Shown piece by piece: positions 3,309 through 48,097 of a stretch of 52,847 bases of DNA; within the stretch, counting starts at the first letter, position 1, and every line of letters begins with the position of its first letter. A model generated the notes under the pieces. That model made no database searches. It had not been told where the DNA came from and was given only the letters and a program-made list of their open reading frames with translations. Position numbers and translations under genes: made by a program. Source of the stretch: a virus (Duplodnaviria; Heunggongvirae; Uroviricota; Caudoviricetes); IMG/VR virus record IMGVR_UViG_2663762646_000002. The stretch is one strand, 5' to 3'.

Positions 3309-3884
3309 CTACGGCAGTGCTGGCCATTCAATATCCTGTGCAGTTGACGTATCAACACGGTTCAGCAATACCCGATACTTTTTCCATGCTTCCAGCAACG
3401 AGATTTCTTCCTCCGTTGCAATTTCCAGATCTGCAGCATCCTGAAGCGGCGCAATATGCTCACTGGCTACCTGCATCAGGTTGTTTTTTGTTTCTTCCGC
3501 CTCCCGGATCCGGAACAGTTTTTCTGCTTCCGTATCCTTCACCCAGGCTGTGCCGTTCCACTTCTGAAACTCCCCTTCCGGCGATAACCAGGTAACATTT
3601 TCCGGTAACGGACCGAGTTCAGAAATAAATAACGCGTCGCCGGAAGCCACGTCATAAACCGTTTTACCCCGATGATCTTCAACGAGATGCCACGATGACT
3701 CATCACTGTTGAAAACAGCCACGAAGCCAGCCGGAATATCTGGCGGTGCAATATCGGTACTGTTTGCTGGCAGACCTGTATGAGGCGGAATATATGCATC
3801 ACCTTCACCAATAAATTCATTAGTTCCGGCCAGCAGATTATAAATTTTTATGGTCCGTGGTTGTTCACTCATTCTGAATGCCAT
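3309..3884 (-). CDS. tfaQ: tail fibre assembly protein (Tfa)
   Basis: 191 aa, [24 protein letters not shown]... matches Tfa proteins as recalled; start overlaps the stf stop. Confidence 0.85.
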
Positions 3885-28241: not shown

Positions 28242-28587
28242 GATGGTGTTAACTCCAGTCATCGCTGGCACTACCACTGCTGGTTCAGAGTTAAAAAAAA
28301 CTATGATTTTTTTCATGATGTTACCGTAGTATGTGAGTATCCATCGAATAGACACCAAGCAAAAAAGCTCCCGAAGGAGCCTTCATTTTCACTTTTTTAA
28401 ATCCAACGACAGACGGCTGGCATTTAAGTATTGTGAAATATTATCAAATGTAATCATCATTGATTTACAAAAGATACATTTTGCCCCGAAAGGATTCATG
28501 TCAGAAACATCAAAAGATGATGTTCTATACTGGGAACCATGACAACACGGGCATCTAAAGTGAATATGGTTTGTAATATTGTCTACC

Positions 28588-28800
28588 TCAAAGCGCCACT
28601 ACATGAACAGCGGCAGGACCTTTAGGTCCGTTCTCAATACCAAATTCAACTTCCTGATTCTCAGTTAATGTTTTGAAATCGTTGCTCTGAATTGCTGAGA
28701 AATGGACAAACACATCTTTGCTGCCATCTTTCGGCGTGATGAAACCAAAACCTTTTTCAGGGTTAAACCATTTCACTAAACCAGTCATTTTGTTAGACAT
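28588..28800 (-). CDS. cspI: cold-shock protein (CspA family)
   Basis: 70 aa, [38 protein letters not shown]... with RNP motifs; position as cspI in Qin. Confidence 0.9.
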
Positions 28801-29162
28801 AATTATTACCTTTTGAAGAAATTAGCCCTTGGGCAGAATGGTCCGAAAAAAAATATCAGAGAGAAAAACCAACAAGGAAATCTCAAGAGGTACAAATAAT
28901 AAAATTATAACAATGACTGCTTCAGATAAATTTGTAACAAACCAGAACACCATTAACGCATGATTAACCACCCATAGCAAGGATTACTTTTGTAAAGAAA
29001 AACACAGCAATGAAAGAATAGCTTTATTTATTAATAAAACGTGTCATTCTGATTAAGACCTTTTATCTTACCCTTAAGATTTCAGGAATTTTGGCTCATG
29101 GAAGAGTCCTTTTTATTTAAATTTTACATTCCGCGATGTAAATGTTCCGATTTAATATTACC

Positions 29163-32370: not shown

Positions 32371-32733
32371 TTGATTTTATTAGTAACAAGTATTTTTTAT
32401 ATTTTAATAATATATTTAAAGCAGATAATAAAAAACCCGCCTGAGCGGGTTTGAGATTGTGGTGCTTTTTGTGGGAGTCATCCACTTACGCACTTTGTTT
32501 TGCCATGCCAGCAGTTAGCTTCTGCTGTAAAACTATTCATGCAGCAAACCTGCACTTCACCACAATGGTTAGCATACTTTTCCTGATTAAGATTTTGCCA
32601 AATATGCTAGCCATTGTTTCATGTATTGGACCTCCTTACTTTTTATTAAAGAGATCCAATATTCACTACTCTGTCCGTATCTCTACTCAGGCATCAGCCT
32701 TCTTCGTTATCGTATACAGACGAGCGATGAATT

Positions 32734-32949
32734 TTAATCAGTAATGATGACATTTGCTGCTGCAGGACCTTTAGCACCACTCTCTATAGAGAAGGTAACC
32801 TTTTGACCTTCAAATAAGGTTCGATAATTATCATTCTGAATCGCAGAAAAATGCACAAACACATCTTTACTACCATCAACAGGAGAAATAAAGCCGAAAC
32901 CTTTATCAGCGTTAAACCATTTTACTAAACCAGTCATTTTATTTGACAT
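32734..32949 (-). CDS. cspB: cold-shock protein (CspA family)
   Basis: 71 aa, [38 protein letters not shown]...; divergent from cspF. Confidence 0.9.
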
Positions 32950-33249
32950 TCTACATTCCTTAACTTGAGCCTTTCGGCATAAATGGTTTGCATAACAGAA
33001 ACGACTTCGTACTTAATTGGAGAGACTCAAAGAAGGAATAAGTGAATAACACCTGAAATGAGAACTGCTTTAGTAAACTACTTCGTATATCGTCTGTTCT
33101 TCAAACCGACGCAATCATTAACGCATAGTTGAACATATGAAGCAATGTTTATTTTAGACATCCAGCCATCTTCAACCCCATCAAAAAACTATAGCTTTCT
33201 TCAGGAACGTGTGTATAGTGCGCCAAGTTATCAGTATTAAGGAATTTTT

Positions 33250-36513: not shown

Positions 36514-36669
36514 TTACTCCTCAGGTTCGTAAGCTGTGAAGACAGCGACCTCCGTCTGGCCGGTTCGGATTCGTACCTCGCAGAGGTCTTTCCTCGTTAC
36601 CAGTGCCGTCACTATGACGGTTAAACAGATGACGATCAGGGCGATTAACATCGCCTTTTGCTGCTTCAT
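36514..36669 (-). CDS. hokD: Hok-family type I toxin
   Basis: 51 aa, MKQQKAMLIALIVICLTVIVTALVTRKDLCEVRIRTGQTEVAVFTAYEPEE, found by manual translation; too short for the supplied ORF track. Confidence 0.9.
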   Translation of the reverse strand: MKQQKAMLIALIVICLTVIVTALVTRKDLCEVRIRTGQTEVAVFTAYEPEE

Positions 36670-36740
36670 AGCCTGCTTCTCCTGTCAACGCAAAGCAGAA
36701 GTGTCACCTTCGGTGCGAAACAGAGATGTCATGCTTTGGT

Positions 36741-37028
36741 TCAGAGAATGCGTTTGACCGCCTCGCTATATACTTCCGAGCGTTCTCTTTTCCCAACAGA
36801 AATCACGAAAACGACAACTTTCTCGTCTATAACCTGGTATACAAGGCGATAGCCTGAAGACCGGAGCTTAATCTTGTAACAATCAGGCATACCACGGAGC
36901 TTGTTTGCTTCAATCCGGGGTGACTCAAGTACTTCAACCAGCTTCTTTTTCAACTGTTCACGTACCGTCGAGCCCAGCTTTCGCCATTCCTTTAGTGCCC
37001 GCTCGTCAAAATCCAGAAAATACGCCAT
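36741..37028 (-). CDS. relE: RelE mRNA interferase toxin
   Basis: 95 aa, MAYFLDFDERALKEWRKLGSTVREQLKKKL... matches RelE. Confidence 0.9.
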   Translation of the reverse strand: MAYFLDFDERALKEWRKLGSTVREQLKKKLVEVLESPRIEANKLRGMPDCYKIKLRSSGYRLVYQVIDEKVVVFVISVGKRERSEVYSEAVKRIL

Positions 37029-37267
37029 CAGAGTTCATCCAGCGTCACACGTACTGGCTTAGGATTACGAAGCCGTTCTTTCACTATCTCCACAAGTTCA
37101 GCATCTTCATCACTCAGGAGTGTCTGTTTGAACGGCAAGCGTTCATTGTCAGCGATATACTCGAGCATGAGACGAAGCGCTTCAGAAGGAGTTACACCCA
37201 TTTTTTCAAGCGCGGCGTAAGAACGCGCTTTAAGTTCATCGTCAATACGCAGGTTAATGCTACCCAT
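37028..37267 (-). CDS. relB: RelB antitoxin
   Basis: 79 aa, MGSINLRIDDELKARSYAALEKMGVTPSEALR... matches RelB; immediately upstream of relE. Confidence 0.9.
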   Translation of the reverse strand: MGSINLRIDDELKARSYAALEKMGVTPSEALRLMLEYIADNERLPFKQTLLSDEDAELVEIVKERLRNPKPVRVTLDEL

Positions 37268-37277
37268 GTCTTACACC

Positions 37278-37306
37278 TCTTGTAATTACAAATGTCATTA
37301 CAAGTA
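37278..37306 (-). promoter_or_regulatory. relBE promoter/operator (relO) region
   Basis: Tandem TTGTAAT hexad-type repeats (minus strand TTGTAATGACATTTGTAATTACAAG) just upstream of the relB SD and ATG. Confidence 0.55.
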
Positions 37307-37597
37307 TCGCACTACAACATGCTTAGGGCAAGTCACGAAGGAAGTCAGAAAGTAGTCGTAAGAACGGTGATCACTGTCCGCTTTGTGCCAGGAGCAGCCA
37401 TTGCTAAGTCCATCCTGTATTGTGCAGGTCAGCTCGTTTTTAAAGAGTCCGGCCATCATCTTACTGGTACAGACACCATATACTTTGTGACGGTCAGGCT
37501 ACATATGCACAACTCAACTTATTCATCTATTTTTTGCTTTAGCATGTCAGTGTTGCTTTCTCGTCGGCGGGTGAGCGGTGACCTGACCTGTCGATAA
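37292..37597 (+). CDS. ydfV: small protein YdfV (function unknown)
   Basis: 101-aa ORF divergent from relB at the Qin ydfV position; its start lies inside the relBE operator region, so coding status is uncertain. Confidence 0.45.
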   Translation: MSLQVSHYNMLRASHEGSQKVVVRTVITVRFVPGAAIAKSILYCAGQLVFKESGHHLTGTDTIYFVTVRLHMHNSTYSSIFCFSMSVLLSRRRVSGDLTCR

Positions 37598-37749
37598 AGG
37601 AACGTAACACGTTTTATGCAACACCCGCATGCGGCAGAAAATTATTGCCGAACGTTTACCCCTGTCAACAAGCTTTACTTTCTGAGGCGCGCCAGCCCGC
37701 GAGGAAAACAATCTGAACATCAAACAATTAATGACACAAGAAATACGAT

Positions 37750-37776
37750 TAAAGATTTTTTTGTGCATGCCGATAG
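37750..37776 (+). promoter_or_regulatory. sigma-28 (FliA) promoter of flxA
   Basis: TAAAGATT-11 nt-GCCGATAG, a near-perfect match to the FliA consensus TAAAGTTT-N11-GCCGATAA, 24 nt upstream of the flxA ATG. Confidence 0.75.
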
Positions 37777-37799
37777 TGCTTTTTTAAAAGGAGAAATCT

Positions 37800-38132
37800 A
37801 TGTCTGTCACAATTCAGGGAAATACCTCAACCGTTATTTCAAACAACTCCGCCCCGGAAGGAACATCAGAAATAGCCAAAATCACAAGACAAATTCAGGT
37901 GCTGACTGAAAAGCTTGGGAAAATCTCATCGGAAGAGGGGATGACGACACAGCAGAAAAAAGAAATGGCTGCATTGGTACAGAAGCAAATTGAAAGCCTC
38001 TGGGCTCAACTGGAGCAGTTGTTAAGGCAGCAGGCAGAGAAAAAGAATGAAGACGCGACAGTTCAGCCTGATAAAAAAGAAGAGAAAAAAGACGATACAA
38101 ATACCGCTGGCACCATTGATATTTACGTCTAA
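37800..38132 (+). CDS. flxA: FliA-regulated protein FlxA
   Basis: 110 aa, MSVTIQGNTSTVISNNSAPEGTSEIAKITRQIQVL...; AAAGGAGAAA SD; followed by a terminator. Confidence 0.85.
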   Translation: MSVTIQGNTSTVISNNSAPEGTSEIAKITRQIQVLTEKLGKISSEEGMTTQQKKEMAALVQKQIESLWAQLEQLLRQQAEKKNEDATVQPDKKEEKKDDTNTAGTIDIYV

Positions 38133-38146
38133 GTGACAGCCGTATT

Positions 38147-38170
38147 GTGGCCCTCATCGGGCCACTTTTC
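38147..38170 (+). terminator. rho-independent terminator after flxA
   Basis: GTGGCCC-TCATC-GGGCCAC followed by TTTT. Confidence 0.7.
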
Positions 38171-38568
38171 GCCATCAGCCTTTTCTTTAAAGACATATTA
38201 TCTTTGTATCATTTCTGATAGTTAACATTACAAGATATAAGTAATGGACGCACTCCCAATTAGTCTATTTAAATCGCCACGAGTTTAACTGACAACCCAT
38301 GATCAATTATGAATTGCAACTATTTCTGTAGTCACTTTTGTGGGGACAGTCCACAAAACTGCCAACTTCCGCTTCTTGCTCTTAGCGGACATTAGCATAG
38401 GCTATTTACCATAACGCCTCATTACGCGCACCGCCCAGACTGACTCAGCGCGTTTCTGGCATATCCCCGGTAAAACAAGTAACAAACCACCCGAAAATGA
38501 ACACCAGAAACGCGACTTAAGAATCTACCCTATGAATGGATATGCACTCAACCGAATCGATCTTGGTT

Positions 38569-39882
38569 TCAATCTTTTTTATCGGGATCAGGCTTCTTTT
38601 TAGGTAACTTCGGGGGCTTAACTTGCTGATGACTTTGCGTTCGGCGCGTAAGCCAGGGATGGTCAGCTTTAGGTTTAACATAGTATTTTGAGCGTAAATC
38701 AATACGGGCATTATCCACTCGTTCATGGACACTCTTTTCATCATCCAGTGGTATAGGCTCCGGGCCATCAACATACTTTTCCCAGCCCAGCGCTTTCCCG
38801 TCATACAGAACGTTAATTTCACCGTCAAAGTTCTCGCATACAGTAACAACCGAATGCCTAAGTCGATATCCCCGGCCCTCACTGCGTACCTGAAACGCAC
38901 TGCTTTTGTACTGGAAAGTGAGATTTTTAGACAGAACGCGCTTCGCCTGTAGGCTGAAGATATAACCCAGTTCCTCTTCAGAATGGTGCACATCAAGATG
39001 AGCATTATCAGTAGTACGAGGCGACGTAGCGAACCGGTTGTTATAGGCTTCAATAAAGGTCGGCAACCATGCATTTGCTGTTTCAATATCACTGATATTC
39101 TGAAGCCGCATTTCTTTGACCAGCCTGTCCTGTAGTGTCTGATTGGCGCGCTCTACCCGCCCTTTTGCCTGCGGGCTGTTGGCATGGATTGGCTCGATGC
39201 CCAGTGTCTTTATCGCACGAGTGAACTGGGTCAGCTCACCTTCCCGCTCTGGGTTATTTACCCTGAATATACTGTGTCTATCAGAGTAGAGAGCGAGCGG
39301 TACGCCATGATCATTAAGGTAACCCCGGAGGGTTTCCATGTAAGCCCGGGTTGTTTCAGCAGGCACAAAACGCAACGCCATCAACGCACTGGTGGCATCA
39401 TCAATGAAAACGATCAGTGTACATCTGGGGCCTCGATTTTCAAACCAGTCATGAGGTGAGCCATCAATCTGGATCAGTTCACCGTAAGATGGTCGTCGCA
39501 TGCGGCGTTGATATATACGGGCAATTTTACGACGGCGTTCACGCCATAACCCCTCTTCTATCATCCACTTTCTGAGAGTTTCAACGGATAAAGATAAACC
39601 GTGTATCTCGCGCAATTTTTCGCACGCAAACGTAGGTCCAAAATCAGCGTAACGGCCTTTGAGGAGTGAAATTACTGTTGCTCTGAATTCAGTAGAAAAG
39701 GAATTATTAGGACGCTTTCCACGTCGGTGGGAAACCAGACCAGAAGGCCCTTCATTTCTATACCGTTGCACCAGACGTTTAACCTGCCGAATAGAAATGC
39801 CAATGCGTGCCGCAGCTTGTTCCTGAATAATCTGAAGTCGGTGGAGTTCCTTATGACTCATCGTAACAGTCTCTTTGATCAT
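38569..39882 (-). CDS. rve-superfamily DDE transposase/integrase-like protein with N-terminal HTH (IS481/ISNCY-like); possible intact counterpart of the K-12 intK remnant
   Basis: 437 aa; HTH at the N-terminus, DDE-type catalytic core (LIQIDGSPHDWF, ALYSDRHSIF, AKGRVERANQTLQDR); no clear terminal inverted repeats found nearby. Confidence 0.7.
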   Translation of the reverse strand: MIKETVTMSHKELHRLQIIQEQAAARIGISIRQVKRLVQRYRNEGPSGLVSHRRGKRPNNSFSTEFRATVISLLKGRYADFGPTFACEKLREIHGLSLSVETLRKWMIEEGLWRERRRKIARIYQRRMRRPSYGELIQIDGSPHDWFENRGPRCTLIVFIDDATSALMALRFVPAETTRAYMETLRGYLNDHGVPLALYSDRHSIFRVNNPEREGELTQFTRAIKTLGIEPIHANSPQAKGRVERANQTLQDRLVKEMRLQNISDIETANAWLPTFIEAYNNRFATSPRTTDNAHLDVHHSEEELGYIFSLQAKRVLSKNLTFQYKSSAFQVRSEGRGYRLRHSVVTVCENFDGEINVLYDGKALGWEKYVDGPEPIPLDDEKSVHERVDNARIDLRSKYYVKPKADHPWLTRRTQSHQQVKPPKLPKKKPDPDKKD

Positions 39883-40216
39883 GAAAAATCCCCCAGAGAA
39901 TTGTCTGGGGACATTTTAGAATGGTTCAAAGGGGACATTACAGCTTGGTGTTAACAATAGCCTGCTTCTCCGTGCCTTTCGGCACGTAAGAGGCTAACCT
40001 ACATGTGTCTAGCATGAAATTGGCCTCAGATTAATGTTAAGCGTCTTGCAGGACGCGTAATGTTAACTGGGGCTTTTCTCTATCTGCCGTTGGTGTCCAT
40101 GCCCGAGGCAGATAGCCTCAAGCACCCGCAGTCATTCTACTTAACTAAGATTTCCCCGCAAACCGTTTTTGTCCAGCACAGTAAATATCCAACTAAACCA
40201 ATGGAGTTCGCTGTAT

Positions 40217-40396
40217 TTACCGCCAGTATTCAATGCACATGACCGCCATGAACACCCCTAAAAAAAGGGCATTTATATATCCAAATATTAATATCAAAAC
40301 ATCAACTTTTTCCATATACCTTGCTGTGAAGATGATGGGCATACATGATGCGAACAACCAGAACGCAACAAACAAAAACTGCAATGCGTTTTTCAT
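40217..40396 (-). CDS. small two-TM membrane protein, function unknown
   Basis: 59 aa from ATG 40396 preceded by AGGAGG at 5-nt spacing (MKNALQFLFVAFWLFASCMPIIFTARYMEKVDVLILIFGYINALFLGVFMAVMCIEYWR). Confidence 0.5.
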   Translation of the reverse strand: MKNALQFLFVAFWLFASCMPIIFTARYMEKVDVLILIFGYINALFLGVFMAVMCIEYWR

Positions 40397-41159
40397 TATT
40401 CCTCCTACAATCAATGTGCAATTACATTTAAACACACCTCAATTTGGCCGGACATATAAATATCTAAACCAGAAAAAATCACTTACATAGCGTTACAAAC
40501 TCTTTAGTCTAAAGGTTCATCGTAAAACATTCCCCATACTTATCAGTCCGTTCCGCGCCAGGTAGCTCATTGCCTTATCTGGCAACCTGTAATCAGGTTT
40601 CCGCTTTTTCAGTTGGCTGGTCGTTTAACCGACATAGTTAATCCATTAATCTAGTTGCCGGATGTTGGTGGATTTTCGCGTTTTAGTTGTTCATAAAAGT
40701 GCACAGCTTTAACCAGTTCTTCTGATGTAACTGGGACTGGTGAGGCAGTGAATAAGGCCTGAATTTGATAGTTCGGCCTGTCGTTACAATCCTCTTTTTT
40801 CGGTACATATTTCCAGTCACCAGACCACTACTTCCCCTGAAAGTCCGTAACGCCTTTTTTCACGTAGCGATATCGCCATGCCACTGGTTTTGCTTGCCCC
40901 GCCGTTTCATGCCCTTCCTGATAATTAATCTCGCTCATTCATCGCCCCACTCATCACAATATGCTTCGACCGGAGTTTTTCCCGCTTCATAGTCATCACG
41001 CTAGGATTCGACATCAGCAGCACTTCCACCGCGTAACTCACCATAGTCCATTAATAGTTCATCCCGCTCTTCAAAACTGTAAGCGTCGTCTCAGCACCGT
41101 CTGGCAGATCCTGAAATTCCTGAGAGAATAGTGGACACCAAATATGGTGGACGCAATCC

Positions 41160-41564
41160 ATGAAATCATTAACCGCAGTGCGTAAAAAAAGCCCTAATTA
41201 TCCCGTTGAGTTCAAAATCAAAATGGTTGAACTCTCGCATCGACCAGAGATCTCCGTAGCGCAACTCGCTCGTGAGCATGGGATCAACGATAATTTGCTG
41301 TTCAAGTGGCGCCAGTACTGGCGCGAAGGAAAACTACGTCCTCCTTCAACAACAGAAAACAACGTGCCTGAGCTGCTCCCGATAACACTTGATGCCGAAG
41401 ATGTTGTCCCTACAACCTCCCCCCGGTCACAACCTGTAGCTGCTGCGACACCTGAATCACTCAATATCAGCTGTGAAGTGACGTTCCGGCACGGATCACT
41501 CCGTCTGAATGGTGCCATCAGCGAAAATATCCTGAACCTGCTGATACGGGAGCTCAAACGTTGA
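41160..41564 (+). CDS. IS66-family accessory protein TnpA
   Basis: 134 aa, first ORF of the IS66 unit. Confidence 0.85.
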   Translation: MKSLTAVRKKSPNYPVEFKIKMVELSHRPEISVAQLAREHGINDNLLFKWRQYWREGKLRPPSTTENNVPELLPITLDAEDVVPTTSPRSQPVAAATPESLNISCEVTFRHGSLRLNGAISENILNLLIRELKR

Positions 41565-41908
41565 TCCCATTACCATCAGGGACAAAGATCTGGCTGGTCG
41601 CTGGCATCACCGATATGAGAAACGGCTTCAACGGCCTGGCGGCAAAGGTGCAGACGACGCTGAAAGACGATCCGATGTCAGGTCACGTTTTTATCTTCCG
41701 TGGGCGTAATGGCAGTCAGGTAAAGCTCCTCTGGTCTACCGGCGATGGACTGTGTCTGCTGACCAAACGGCTGGAGCGCGGCCGCTTCGCCTGGCCGTCA
41801 GCCCGGGATGGCAAAGTGTTCCTCACACCGGCACAGCTGGCGATGCTGCTGGAAGGTATCGACTGGCGGCAGCCTAAAAGACTGCTTACGTCCCTGACTA
41901 TGTTGTAA
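41561..41908 (+). CDS. IS66-family accessory protein TnpB
   Basis: 115 aa; start is a TTG overlapping the tnpA stop. Confidence 0.85.
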   Translation: MIPLPSGTKIWLVAGITDMRNGFNGLAAKVQTTLKDDPMSGHVFIFRGRNGSQVKLLWSTGDGLCLLTKRLERGRFAWPSARDGKVFLTPAQLAMLLEGIDWRQPKRLLTSLTML

Positions 41909-41956
41909 GCCTCTTTATCCTGGTCGACGCTGAATGAGCCTGGTAATATACCCGGT

Positions 41957-43492
41957 ATGAGCAGCTCACTTCCTGACGATATCAATGCACTGAAACGTCT
42001 CCTTGCCGAACAGGAGGCGCTGAACCGTGCCCTGCAGGAAAAGCTGAACGAGCGTGAACGCGAAATAGACCATCTGCAGGCACAGCTGGATAAGCTGCGC
42101 CGGATGAACTTCGGCAGCCGCTCGGAAAAAGTCTCCCGTCGTATCGCACAGATGGAAGCTGACCTGAAGGCACTTCAGAAAGAAAGTGATACCCTTACCG
42201 GTCGGGTTGACGACCCGGCCGTGCAGCGCCCGCTGCGTCAAACCCGCACCCGCAAACCGTTCCCCGAATCACTCCCCCGCGATGAAAAACGGCTGCTGCC
42301 GGCAGCGTCATGCTGCCCGGAATGTGGAGGCTCGCTGAGCTATCTGGGTGAGGATGCCGCCGAACAGCTGGAGCTGATGCGCAGCGCCTTCCGGGTTATC
42401 CGGACTGTACGTGAAAAGCATGCCTGTACTCAGTGCGATGCCATCGTGCAGGCCCCCGCGCCTTCACGGCCCATCGAGCGGGGTATCGCAGGACCGGGGC
42501 TGCTGGCCCGCGTGCTGATCTCAAAGTATGCAGAGCACACCCCGCTGTACCGCCAGTCTGAAATGTACGGCCGCCAGGGCGTGGAGCTGAGTCGTTCACT
42601 GCTGTCGGGCTGGGTGGATGCATGCTGCCGGCTACTGTCACCGCTGGAAGAAGCGCTTCAGGACTATGTGCTGACTGACGGTAAGCTCCATGCTGATGAC
42701 ACGCCTGTCCCGGTGCTGTTGCCAGGCAATAAGAAAACGAAGACCGGGCGGTTATGGACCTACGTTCGTGACGACCGTAACGCCGGGTCAACGCTGGCGC
42801 CGGCGGTGTGGTTCGCTTACAGCCCGGACAGAAAAGGCATCCATCCGCAGACCCATCTTGCGGGGTTCAGTGGTGTACTGCAGGCGGATGCATACGCCGG
42901 GTTCAACGAGCTGTACCGGGATGGCCGGATAACGGAAGCCGCCTGTTGGGCTCACGCCCGCCGTAAAATCCACGATGTGCACGTTCGCACCCCGTCAGCC
43001 CTGACGGAGGAAGCGCTGAAACGGATCGGCGAACTGTACGCCATCGAGGCAGAGATAAGGGGAATGACGGCGGAGCAGCGCCTTGCCGAACGTCAGTTGA
43101 AAACGAAACCGCTGCTGAAATCCCTGGAAAGCTGGCTGCGTGAAAAGATGAAAACCCTGTCGCGACACTCAGAACTGGCGAAAGCGTTCGCATACGCCCT
43201 GAACCAGTGGCCGGCGCTGACGTACTATGCAGATGATGGCTGGGCTGAGGCGGACAATAACATCGCTGAAAATGCGTTGCGGATGGTCAGTCTGGGCCGC
43301 AAAAACTACCTGTTCTTCGGTTCGGATCATGGAGGAGAGCGGGGAGCGCTGCTGTACAGCCTGATCGGGACGTGCAAACTGAACGGAGTGGAGCCAGAAA
43401 GCTACCTCCGCTATGTCCTTGACGTCATAGCCGACTGGCCGATAAACCGGGTCGGCGAACTGCTCCCCCTGGCGCGTAGCACTGCCGACTGA
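41957..43492 (+). CDS. IS66-family transposase TnpC
   Basis: 511 aa with leucine-zipper-like N-terminus, CxxC zinc motif (CCPECGG...CTQCD) and DDE region. Confidence 0.9.
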
Positions 43493-48040: not shown

Positions 48041-48097
48041 TTTCTGGTGACGTTTGGCGGTATCAGTTTTACTCCGTGACTGCTCTGCCGCCCTTTT
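48041..48097 (+). ncRNA. dicF: DicF small regulatory RNA (ftsZ/xylR/pykA-targeting sRNA)
   Basis: TTTCTGGTGACGTTTGGCGGTATCAGTTTTACTCCGTGACTGCTCTGCCGCCCTTTTT matches DicF as recalled, including the terminal GGCGG...GCCGCC hairpin and U tail. Confidence 0.9.

Follow-up and report, generated by a model that had tools for sequence, protein, structure and literature searches.

A probable cargo-carrying transposon of the IS1202 family inserted at the hok locus of a Qin-type prophage

The stretch of viral DNA analysed here, IMG/VR record IMGVR_UViG_2663762646_000002 (52,847 nucleotides, hereafter the window), carries on its minus strand, at 38569..39882, an open reading frame (ORF) of 437 amino acids (aa) that resembles a transposase gene, and the question that this locus raises is whether the gene belongs to a mobile element and, if so, where that element begins and ends. 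According to the original prediction, which was made from the letters of the sequence alone, the gene has no recognisable insertion sequence (IS) ends and is followed by a small membrane protein. The answer that we favour, with a probability of roughly 0.9, is that the ORF is the transposase of a modular unit transposon of 3,274 bp, a member of the IS1202 family related to ISEsa1, which was inserted in the hok locus of the Qin cryptic prophage with a 15-bp target duplication and which recurs at hok genes elsewhere.

The element, its ends and its transposase

The element occupies window positions 36683-39956, with its transposase gene on the minus strand. Its left inverted repeat (IRL, TGTTAACACCAAGCTGTAATGTCCCC; 39931..39956, minus strand) has its outermost base at 39956, and its right inverted repeat (IRR; 36683..36708, plus strand) reads TGTCAACGCAAAGCAGAAGTGTCACC from outside inward; the two are imperfect repeats of 26 bp with TGT/ACA tips and match at 19 of the 26 positions. 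The whole unit is flanked by a perfect 15-bp duplication, GGAGAAGCAGGCTAT, of which the left copy (39957..39971, minus strand) consists of the hok Shine-Dalgarno (SD) sequence and the 'AT' of the start codon, and the identical right copy (36668..36682, minus strand) supplies the SD sequence and the 'AT' of the hokD ATG. Upstream of this ATG the DNA reads ...GGTGACACTTCTGCTTTGCGTTGACA|GGAGAAGCAGGCTATG, the 26 bases before the bar being the IRR, ending in ACA, and the 15 after it being the duplication. As well, both ends contain an inner subterminal repeat, ATGTCCCC on the left (39907..39914, minus strand; 24 bp inside the outer repeat) and ATGTCATG on the right (36726-36733, minus strand). These lie at offsets 43-50 and 44-51, respectively, about 24-25 bp inside each end, and are inverted relative to each other. 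The terminal inverted repeats that the original prediction could not find are thus present, the IRR lying outside the span that it covered. It had instead pointed to motifs in direct orientation on both sides of the gene, and GGGGACA does occur on the plus strand at 38342, 39907 and 39931, without being enriched in the window (4 occurrences against 5.6 expected). Of these, the copy at 39907 is the inner repeat of the left end and the copy at 39931 its outer repeat, whereas the one at 38342 lies inside cargo DNA and marks no element end, and the true right-end counterparts are inverted.

The left end was mapped by aligning the window with four plasmid copies, and the break was rechecked among 79 loci from species-representative genomes. 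Homology breaks at exactly 39956 in more than ten unrelated contexts, and the first 51 bp of this end are 84% conserved even in relatives at 62% amino-acid identity. Moreover, an empty-site allele, of the kind that had been proposed as a means of defining the ends, was found in the same prophage region of E. coli M23917 (locus L085 in our comparison) and places them at 36683 and 39956. In this allele the hok leader is joined directly to hokD with one copy of the 15-mer, the whole 3,274 bp is missing, not 1.6 kb, and HokD has the same accession as that of the window (WP_000813254.1). The same uninterrupted leader-hokD junction is carried by 4036 of 5426 complete E. coli genomes, and it is also found in lambdoid phages, such as 933W with its mokW/hokW/sokW locus.

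Further copies of the 3.3-kb unit, about 98.5-99% identical, were identified on plasmids: one of the IncI type from Salmonella, with the duplication TGGAGGGGCTATGAT, and IncF plasmids of Enterobacter, with the duplication GGAGAAGAAGGCCAT. A 4,600-bp version from Citrobacter (L088) has the same ends around a cargo of cytochrome b and a cation diffusion facilitator (CDF) transporter, and a 12,843-bp version from Phytobacter (L089), again with the same ends, holds the nickel- and chromate-resistance genes ncrABCY and chrBA with additional cargo and lies between copies of the duplication GGAGAAGTCAGCTAT. A perfect 15-bp duplication is seen in the window and at three plasmid sites, and the plasmid versions all directly precede intact Hok-family ORFs with differing protein accessions. 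More distant, simple-IS relatives of 1.36-1.47 kb, found in Hahella, Chromatiales and Rhabdochlamydiaceae, have the same IRL/IRR consensus and are flanked by 15-17-bp duplications in more than 25 copies; because they share the IRR consensus, 36683-36708 can be recognised as the cognate right end of this transposase clade. The simple relatives of about 1.45 kb are multi-copy (L025-L036 and L041-L072, from Hahella and Rhabdochlamydiaceae), with 13 or more copies in Hahella sp. SMD15-11, including a tandem pair, and their duplications lie at varied targets, usually after (T/G)CAA, like the hok sites (GGCAA|).

These copies bear on another possibility, namely that the window holds a free-standing ISEsa1 of 1.6 kb (~38366-39956) with weak inverted repeats and no duplication, and that flxA, ydfV and relBE are unrelated prophage neighbours. 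The ISfinder entry for ISEsa1, which gives 1,609 bp, terminal inverted repeats matching at 15 of 22 positions and no target-site duplication, speaks for it, as does the homology between copies with different neighbours, which continues past the stop codon of the transposase gene, across 200 bp of non-coding DNA and a hairpin, and gives way to divergence near 38366; from the IRL to this hairpin there are 1,591 bp in the window, or 1,618 bp without the 27-bp deletion described below. However, the DNA from 38366 to 36683 travels with the transposase gene into unrelated plasmids at the identity given above, always with the same IRR and a matching 15-bp repeat, and this IRR consensus is common to the simple-IS relatives. 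The empty site, in addition, lacks the whole 3,274 bp, only GCGGACA resembles an inverted IRL at 38366, and no empty site joining 39957 to 38365 was found in 5,426 genomes. We regard the 1.6-kb element as very improbable. The hairpin near 38366 is probably the 'right end' of ISEsa1 as catalogued, and the catalogued element, compared here by its catalogue description, probably covers only the left module of the transposon; our results suggest that the ISfinder entry is mis-delimited.

Two other candidates for the right repeat, GGGGATATGCC..GAGTCA (38468-38441, matching the reverse complement of the IRL at 15 of 26 positions) and the hairpin end GCGGAAG, were dropped in favour of the repeat at 36683, with its 19/26 match and its matching duplication. 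The tip of this repeat (36683-36688) forms on the minus strand a perfect, outward-facing TTGACA, the -35 consensus, which is conserved in relatives L025-L072, and the duplication length of 15-17 bp is that of a promoter spacer. A circle-junction promoter (TTGACA, N15-17, IRL tip) is conceivable, but the IRL tip gives a poor -10. In the left end, directly before the ATG of the transposase gene, a terminator-like hairpin with an 8-bp stem and a T-run (39890-39911, minus strand) overlaps the inner repeat, and it would stop read-through from the orphaned hok promoter into the transposase gene.

The 437-aa ORF encodes a transposase that is ISEsa1-like and belongs to the IS1202 family (formerly ISNCY). 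It matches the NCBIfam model NF033594, 'ISNCY family transposase', with 456 bits (cutoff 250, E=7e-137), and a near-identical 446-aa plasmid orthologue is named 'IS1202-like element ISEsa1 family transposase' in RefSeq. The helix-turn-helix (HTH) and the Asp-Asp-Glu (DDE) catalytic core that had been predicted for it are borne out by N-terminal Pfam matches to HTH_32/29/28 and by the catalytic residues D140, D201 and E244, which are accompanied by an extra pair, D161-D162, and by Q251 at E+7. The Pfam match to the rve_3 domain itself is just sub-threshold (24.4 against a cutoff of 26.5 bits). A PDB sequence search with the transposase returned a marginal retroviral-integrase match only, so no structural inference was drawn.

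A 27-bp in-frame deletion between TCAGGA repeats has removed nine residues, ESINRHITQ, from the N-terminal HTH region of the window's transposase, and this stretch is present in all relatives. Because alleles of 3,274 bp and 3,301 bp are both found at the Qin site with an identical duplication, the deletion is secondary, and owing to it the window's copy of the element is probably non-autonomous. In K-12 strains, only nucleotides 1130-1314 of the transposase gene are kept, at 100% identity and annotated as ydfW; by this match, K-12 ydfW/intK is the 3' remnant of the gene, as had been supposed for intK. The RefSeq annotation made by the Prokaryotic Genome Annotation Pipeline (PGAP) splits the intact 437-aa ORF into 'protein YdfW' (49 aa) and an 'ISNCY family transposase, pseudogene, missing C-terminus' (also in L001, 6470-7762), a split that is an annotation artefact from the K-12 naming.

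The original prediction also considered that the gene might be a domesticated or phage-borne recombinase and no free IS, that is, one adopted by the prophage which lost its ends and now serves Qin. The gene is indeed located in the Qin prophage, where its ORF is still open, and each E. coli genome that carries it has it in a single place, which is invariably Qin. But what surrounds it is a complete transposon, with its 19/26 inverted repeats and perfect duplication intact, an empty site, and plasmid copies with identical ends. Moreover, the 27-bp deletion here and the loss of most of the gene in K-12 represent decay, not conservation, and the 4036 genomes counted above carry hok loci of the same type that are uninterrupted and have no such gene. 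A domesticated gene is hardly credible at this locus. It had also been anticipated that a known IS with inverted repeats and a target duplication might be found to bound 38.3-40.0 kb and to leave the small membrane ORF outside. An element of a known family with both features was found and the small ORF does lie outside it, which largely overturns the earlier proposal; the bounds, however, are 36.68-39.96 kb.

Insertion at hok initiation regions

What did the element insert into? The 5' half of the disrupted target is the hok mRNA leader with its mok-sok region (39957..40127, minus strand), which matches the Rfam model RF01794 over its full length (1-157) with 104 bits. In this match, which runs from 40127 to 39956, the final AUG of the model aligns to AU|U, the last U being the first IRL base, so the element sits inside the hok start codon. 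The 3' half is the toxin ORF hokD of the Hok/Gef family (36514..36669, minus strand), which now stands after relE. The insertion has thus split the hok leader, with its promoter, mok and sok, from the hokD ORF, and the two are now 3.3 kb apart; the structured leader ends at the junction, and in the uninterrupted allele the Hok/Gef ORF joins it there. That the right flank holds a shortened hok ORF (MLAVLW...) was considered and, after the empty-site alignment, dropped.

To examine the preference for such targets, 162 loci with the IRR tip were sampled without bias from metagenomes and IMG/VR. The Qin-hokD junction accounts for 107 of these, about 24 lie on about 15 other hok-type GGAG..ATG sequences, 12 lie on one other site, and about 15 are scattered. 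At least ten distinct hok-leader junctions were recognised, and their distance from the hairpin stays at 16 bp, or now and then 17 bp, also in those with a shifted ATG (L013, L086). In all hok cases that are fully bounded, the duplication begins one base past the inner stem of the imperfect palindrome that sequesters the SD sequence and the start codon (TAGCCTCTTACGTGCC-GAAA-GGCACGGAGAAGCAGGCTA). From these alignments, targeting of hok initiation regions is strongly indicated, not proven.

Is it possible that the unit is real but was passed from one hok locus to another by homologous recombination in the hok sequence on either side, and not by targeted transposition? The hok leaders and ORFs are 75-95% similar between replicons, and in L007-L013 flank and element have diverged to about the same extent, so not every hok junction is an independent event. 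However, each site has its own matched 15-bp pair, such as GCAGGCTAT, GAAGGCCAT, GTCAGCTAT and, at the shifted pnd site, TGGAGGGGCTATGAT; at one site (L020) the orientation is reversed, and non-hok sites have matched repeats too (L077). Spread by recombination is, in our judgement, highly improbable.

Several points nevertheless weigh against targeted transposition of the unit, and the co-divergence in L007-L013 is one of them. The evidence for movement is wholly comparative. The hok preference could partly reflect selection or ascertainment, with tolerated insertions spreading along with successful plasmids, and non-hok insertion sites do occur (L077, L003, L009, L017 and about 15 singletons). 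In addition, the mechanism of the IS1202 family is itself unsettled, and the roles ascribed below to the cer-like site and to relBE are ones that we infer.

For the transposition reaction, the following course is proposed. The DDE transposase would bind GGGGACAT-type repeats at both ends and cut the target with a 15-bp stagger; measured from the inner hairpin of the palindrome at which hok translation is initiated, the cuts would lie at a constant distance of about 16 bp on the 3' side. Copy-out-paste-in would probably be the pathway, and the outward TTGACA at the IRR tip would fit it. For the IS1202 family, circular intermediates were reported and copy-out-paste-in was proposed. The results suggest that a DDE transposase acting as a single protein recognises hok initiation hairpins as targets by their sequence or structure.

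The second recurrent site, GGAG(A/T)TGTATGGGTCC, to which the 12 junctions mentioned above belong, is no hok gene and lies directly 3' of a short hairpin (CTGTGTGAACTTACACAG); it is found in the left flank of L004 and in L093, L095, L099, L101, L102, L143, L145, L162 and L174. Two loci from Leclercia have an arrangement of their own. In L021 (2391-2440), the IRR is followed by 10 bp of the hok start region, GAAGGCTATG, after which comes the IRL belonging to another relative (78% amino-acid identity), which indicates nested or tandem use of one hok site by two different elements. In L046 (2472-2497), a similar IRR abuts an internal part of a truncated transposase gene.

Cargo, relBE and a cer-like Xer site

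By comparing versions with different cargo, three modules were defined, and the IRL, the transposase, a cer-like XerC/D site, relBE and the IRR are constant across these versions. The left module (39956-38366) comprises the IRL, the terminator-like hairpin, the transposase gene, the cer-like Xer site and hairpin-L (ATGTCCGCT..AGCGGAAG; 38366..38394, minus strand), where homology among elements with different cargo stops. The variable cargo module (37396..38365) is replaced in the Citrobacter and Phytobacter versions and holds, in the window, flxA (37800-38132, plus strand), the distal part of ydfV and the GGGGACA at 38342; across the lineage the size of this slot ranges from 1 to 10.5 kb. The constant right module (36709..37395, minus strand) consists of hairpin-R (37376-37399), relB (37028-37267), relE (36741-37028) and the inner repeat, all on the minus strand, up to the IRR. 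Although the cargo of L088 and L089 differs, they keep this module at 98.5-98.8% identity, and the accessions of its RelB and RelE proteins are those of K-12-type Qin. The ydfV ORF (37292-37597, plus strand) is missing from elements with other cargo and, because it straddles the boundary between the relBE and cargo modules at ~37395, is probably a chimeric ORF and no genuine gene. Hairpin-L and hairpin-R bracket the cargo slot and are related, with arms GTCCGCT/AGCGGAC; hairpin-R is degenerate in the window and perfect in L088, and homology between cargo versions breaks at or within the two hairpins.

The core of the cer-like site, the sole such site in the window, lies at 38404..38432 on the minus strand and consists of GGTGCGCGTAA (XerC arm), TGAGGCG (spacer) and TTATGGTAAAT (XerD arm), both arms being identical to those of a site in a Klebsiella ColRNAI plasmid. 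On the XerC side of the core, a cer-type accessory-like sequence (38433..38552, minus strand) belongs to about 120-150 bp of homology, at 74-78% identity, with the equivalent region in many small ColE1-type plasmids. In its sequence, the region thus has the 11-bp arms, the 6-8-bp centre and the accessory sequence on the XerC side that characterise cer-type sites, for which an accessory sequence of 150-200 bp is the norm. The site is conserved in element relatives at 70-90% identity. At 70%, it reads GGTGCGTACAA-N8-TTATGGTAAAT, which is almost the ColE1 cer core. That the cer site was a pre-existing target of the IS, and so part of the flank, was rejected, since the cer-like region and the hairpin co-diverge with the transposase gene in more than ten contexts.

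At the equivalent of 38404-38432 in Citrobacter portucalensis A60 (L020, 3977-5146), the site is split by about 1.1 kb that holds two small cassettes, one with a DUF2158-like ORF and one with a lipoprotein-like ORF and a small partner, each ending in TTATGGTAAAT. The first site retains the element's XerC arm, and the last retains the element sequence beyond the XerD arm. The arrangement looks like Xer-mediated cassette capture, similar to that of the Acinetobacter pdif modules. A likeness between the site and the element's end was observed as well: the IRL tip TGTTAAC (39950-39956) resembles the XerD arm TTATGTTAAAT, and the sequence reaching from the XerD arm across hairpin-L's left arm (TGGTAAATAGCCTATGCTAATGTCCGC, within 38376-38414) is similar to the IRL at 16 of 26 positions in direct orientation. 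Such a likeness may reflect an evolutionary link between IS1202-family ends and Xer sites.

As for function, the cer-like site would resolve multimers of the carrier replicon through the host XerCD recombinases (with PepA/ArgR) and might also capture Xer cassettes, and relBE would stabilise the carrier by post-segregational killing. The Hok ORF is intact downstream of relE in all contexts examined, where hok would be uncoupled from mok/sok and read from the relBE promoter. Because the duplication recreates the SD sequence and the ATG, hok would still be translatable, but transcribed from the relBE promoter; the insertion at the hokD start codon would therefore be the origin of the K-12 relB-relE-hokD (relBEF) operon. 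K-12 would later have lost the IRL and most of the transposase gene, leaving ydfW/intK. Co-transcription of the relBEF arrangement is known (cited in PMC5120126).

For the much-studied relBE locus of K-12, the transposon supplies a vehicle and a mechanism, and arrival of relBE as transposon cargo would explain why hokD lacks mok/sok control and why 'intK' and flxA are adjacent. A wider proposal is that ISEsa1-type elements are not IS of 1.6 kb but cargo-carrying IS1202 transposons that home to the translation-initiation palindrome of hok genes, bring a kit for plasmid stability consisting of relBE and a cer site dependent on host Xer, and rewire hok to the relBE promoter, with K-12 relBEF, intK/ydfW and flxA as leftovers of one such transposon and the nickel/chromate resistance island on plasmids of Klebsiella and Enterobacter as cargo of this vehicle; its chances of being right and of being wrong seem to us about even.

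Related elements and prophage surroundings

According to previous work, members of the IS1202 family are characterised by transposases of 400-500 aa with an HTH, a DDE triad, an extra DD pair lying between D1 and D2, and a Q at E+7 (bioRxiv 10.1101/2022.12.17.520857). The window element has these transposase signatures, TGT-tipped inverted repeats (22-29 bp is the norm) and internal repeats, and its duplication falls in the 15-17-bp range of ISTde1-type members. According to PMC10132070, ISEsa1 is placed in a separate small subgroup, and ISAjo2 has a second inner motif near its ends, as both ends have here. The window lineage is like the ISEsa1/ISTde1-type members in its NF033594 transposase with HTH and DDE, DD pair and Q, in 24-29-bp TGT inverted repeats with subterminal repeats, and in a long duplication (15 bp here). 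It differs from them in its size of 3.3-12.8 kb with passengers, in its internal Xer site and in its toxin-antitoxin pair, and from the family at large in a strong preference for hok initiation regions, which is unreported for the family. Strictly defined, an IS has a single ORF in 1.3-2 kb and no passengers; the window element, at 3,274 bp with flxA, ydfV, relB, relE and the Xer site, is no IS in this sense because passengers are carried.

A link with Xer sites is already known from the ISAba32/ISAjo2 subgroup, which targets XerC/D sites (pdif, dif). With this subgroup the window element has in common the family, the connection to Xer and the way of inserting, in one orientation and at a set distance from the sequence that is recognised. 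ISAba32/ISAjo2 elements, however, insert beside a Xer site that is already there, with the IRL 5 bp away from its XerC arm and with 5-bp duplications (5-6 bp for both measures among Xer-site-targeting IS of the ISAba32 type), whereas the element here has hok as its target and its IRL next to the hok leader, and its Xer site is 3' of the transposase gene and co-diverges with it. With an internal Xer site and a 15-bp duplication, the element is not of the ISAba32 type, and the connection of the IS1202 family to Xer is widened from targeting Xer sites to carrying one.

The 'transporter IS' elements (tISKpn21, tISKpn65, tISRel10) also carry extra sequence between the transposase gene and the IRR, but theirs is a single ORF of unknown function, whereas the window lineage has a fixed backbone of relBE and cer with an exchangeable slot of 1-10.5 kb that can hold metal-resistance operons. 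Transposons of the Tn3 family reportedly carry toxin-antitoxin pairs beside the res site. Like these, the window element is a unit transposon that combines a transposase, a site-specific recombination site, a type II toxin-antitoxin pair and variable cargo; unlike these, it has a transposase of another family, other ends and another duplication length, and it encodes no resolvase, so that it would need host XerCD. Disruption of chromosomal hok loci by mobile DNA is likewise said to have occurred in E. coli K-12, with insertions of IS150 and IS186 beside hokA, hokC and hokE, and the window element resembles these cases in that respect.

That relBE had become integrated into hokD from plasmids was stated by Ramisetty and Santhosh (2016), as cited in PMC6379469. 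Beyond the relBE-hokD junction of that report, the present analysis defines the transposon that served as vehicle, both of its ends, its target duplication, an empty site and the position used again and again in many hok loci. Our search of the literature, which extended neither to ISfinder nor to TnCentral, returned no description of the vehicle, of its ends or of the hok preference, and no named ISEsa1 transposon with relE, hok, ncr or chr. As far as the searched literature goes, integration of relBE into hokD was already known and the transposon vehicle appears to be new. Knowledge of the true ends allows such elements to be correctly annotated across thousands of E. coli genomes and plasmids of enterobacteria, and the transposon backbone can be recognised as one that carries metal-resistance operons (ncr, chr, CDF) between clinical plasmids.

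Outside the element and upstream of the hok promoter, in the prophage backbone, lies the small membrane ORF of 59 aa (40217..40396, minus strand). It was predicted to have a ribosome-binding site and two hydrophobic segments, and both are present: AGGAGG stands 4 nt before its ATG, and the hydrophobicity profile has two peaks. Its predicted place downstream of the transposase gene was mistaken, as on the shared minus strand it lies 5' of that gene, with the complete hok/sok leader between them. The 59-aa ORF is also present in the empty-site allele, and it has no match in Pfam, NCBIfam or PHROGs, including Hok/Gef and other small-toxin families. Its homologues are confined to Escherichia and Shigella, and in many of them a frameshift at a T7 run abolishes the second hydrophobic segment. 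Among lambdoid phages with the same hok locus, most do not have the ORF. It is left uncalled by PGAP, and in a matching phage record the depositors made their call on the opposite strand. A scan for consensus promoters found no sigma-70 site near this ORF or the hok leader. The case for it as a conserved gene is weak, and for the possible role as a toxin, exclusion factor or moron that the original prediction gave it, the evidence speaks neither for nor against; the membrane toxin that is actually tied to the element is hokD.

The genes around the element, including cspB/F, ydfT/U, rem, hokD, relE, relB, ydfV and flxA, are those of the Qin cryptic prophage. Between the 59-aa ORF and an IS66-family element, a prophage ORF at 40517-40938 is frameshifted in the RefSeq annotation. 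The IS66-family element is ISEc22-like, with orfA, tnpB and a 511-aa transposase, and lies about 0.8 kb past the 59-aa ORF (41160-43492 and beyond). Other Rfam matches in the window, namely the IS009 RNA, two cspA-type thermoregulator leaders and DicF (3343-3541, 28561-28946, 32718-33110 and 48042-48093), fit a Qin-type prophage.

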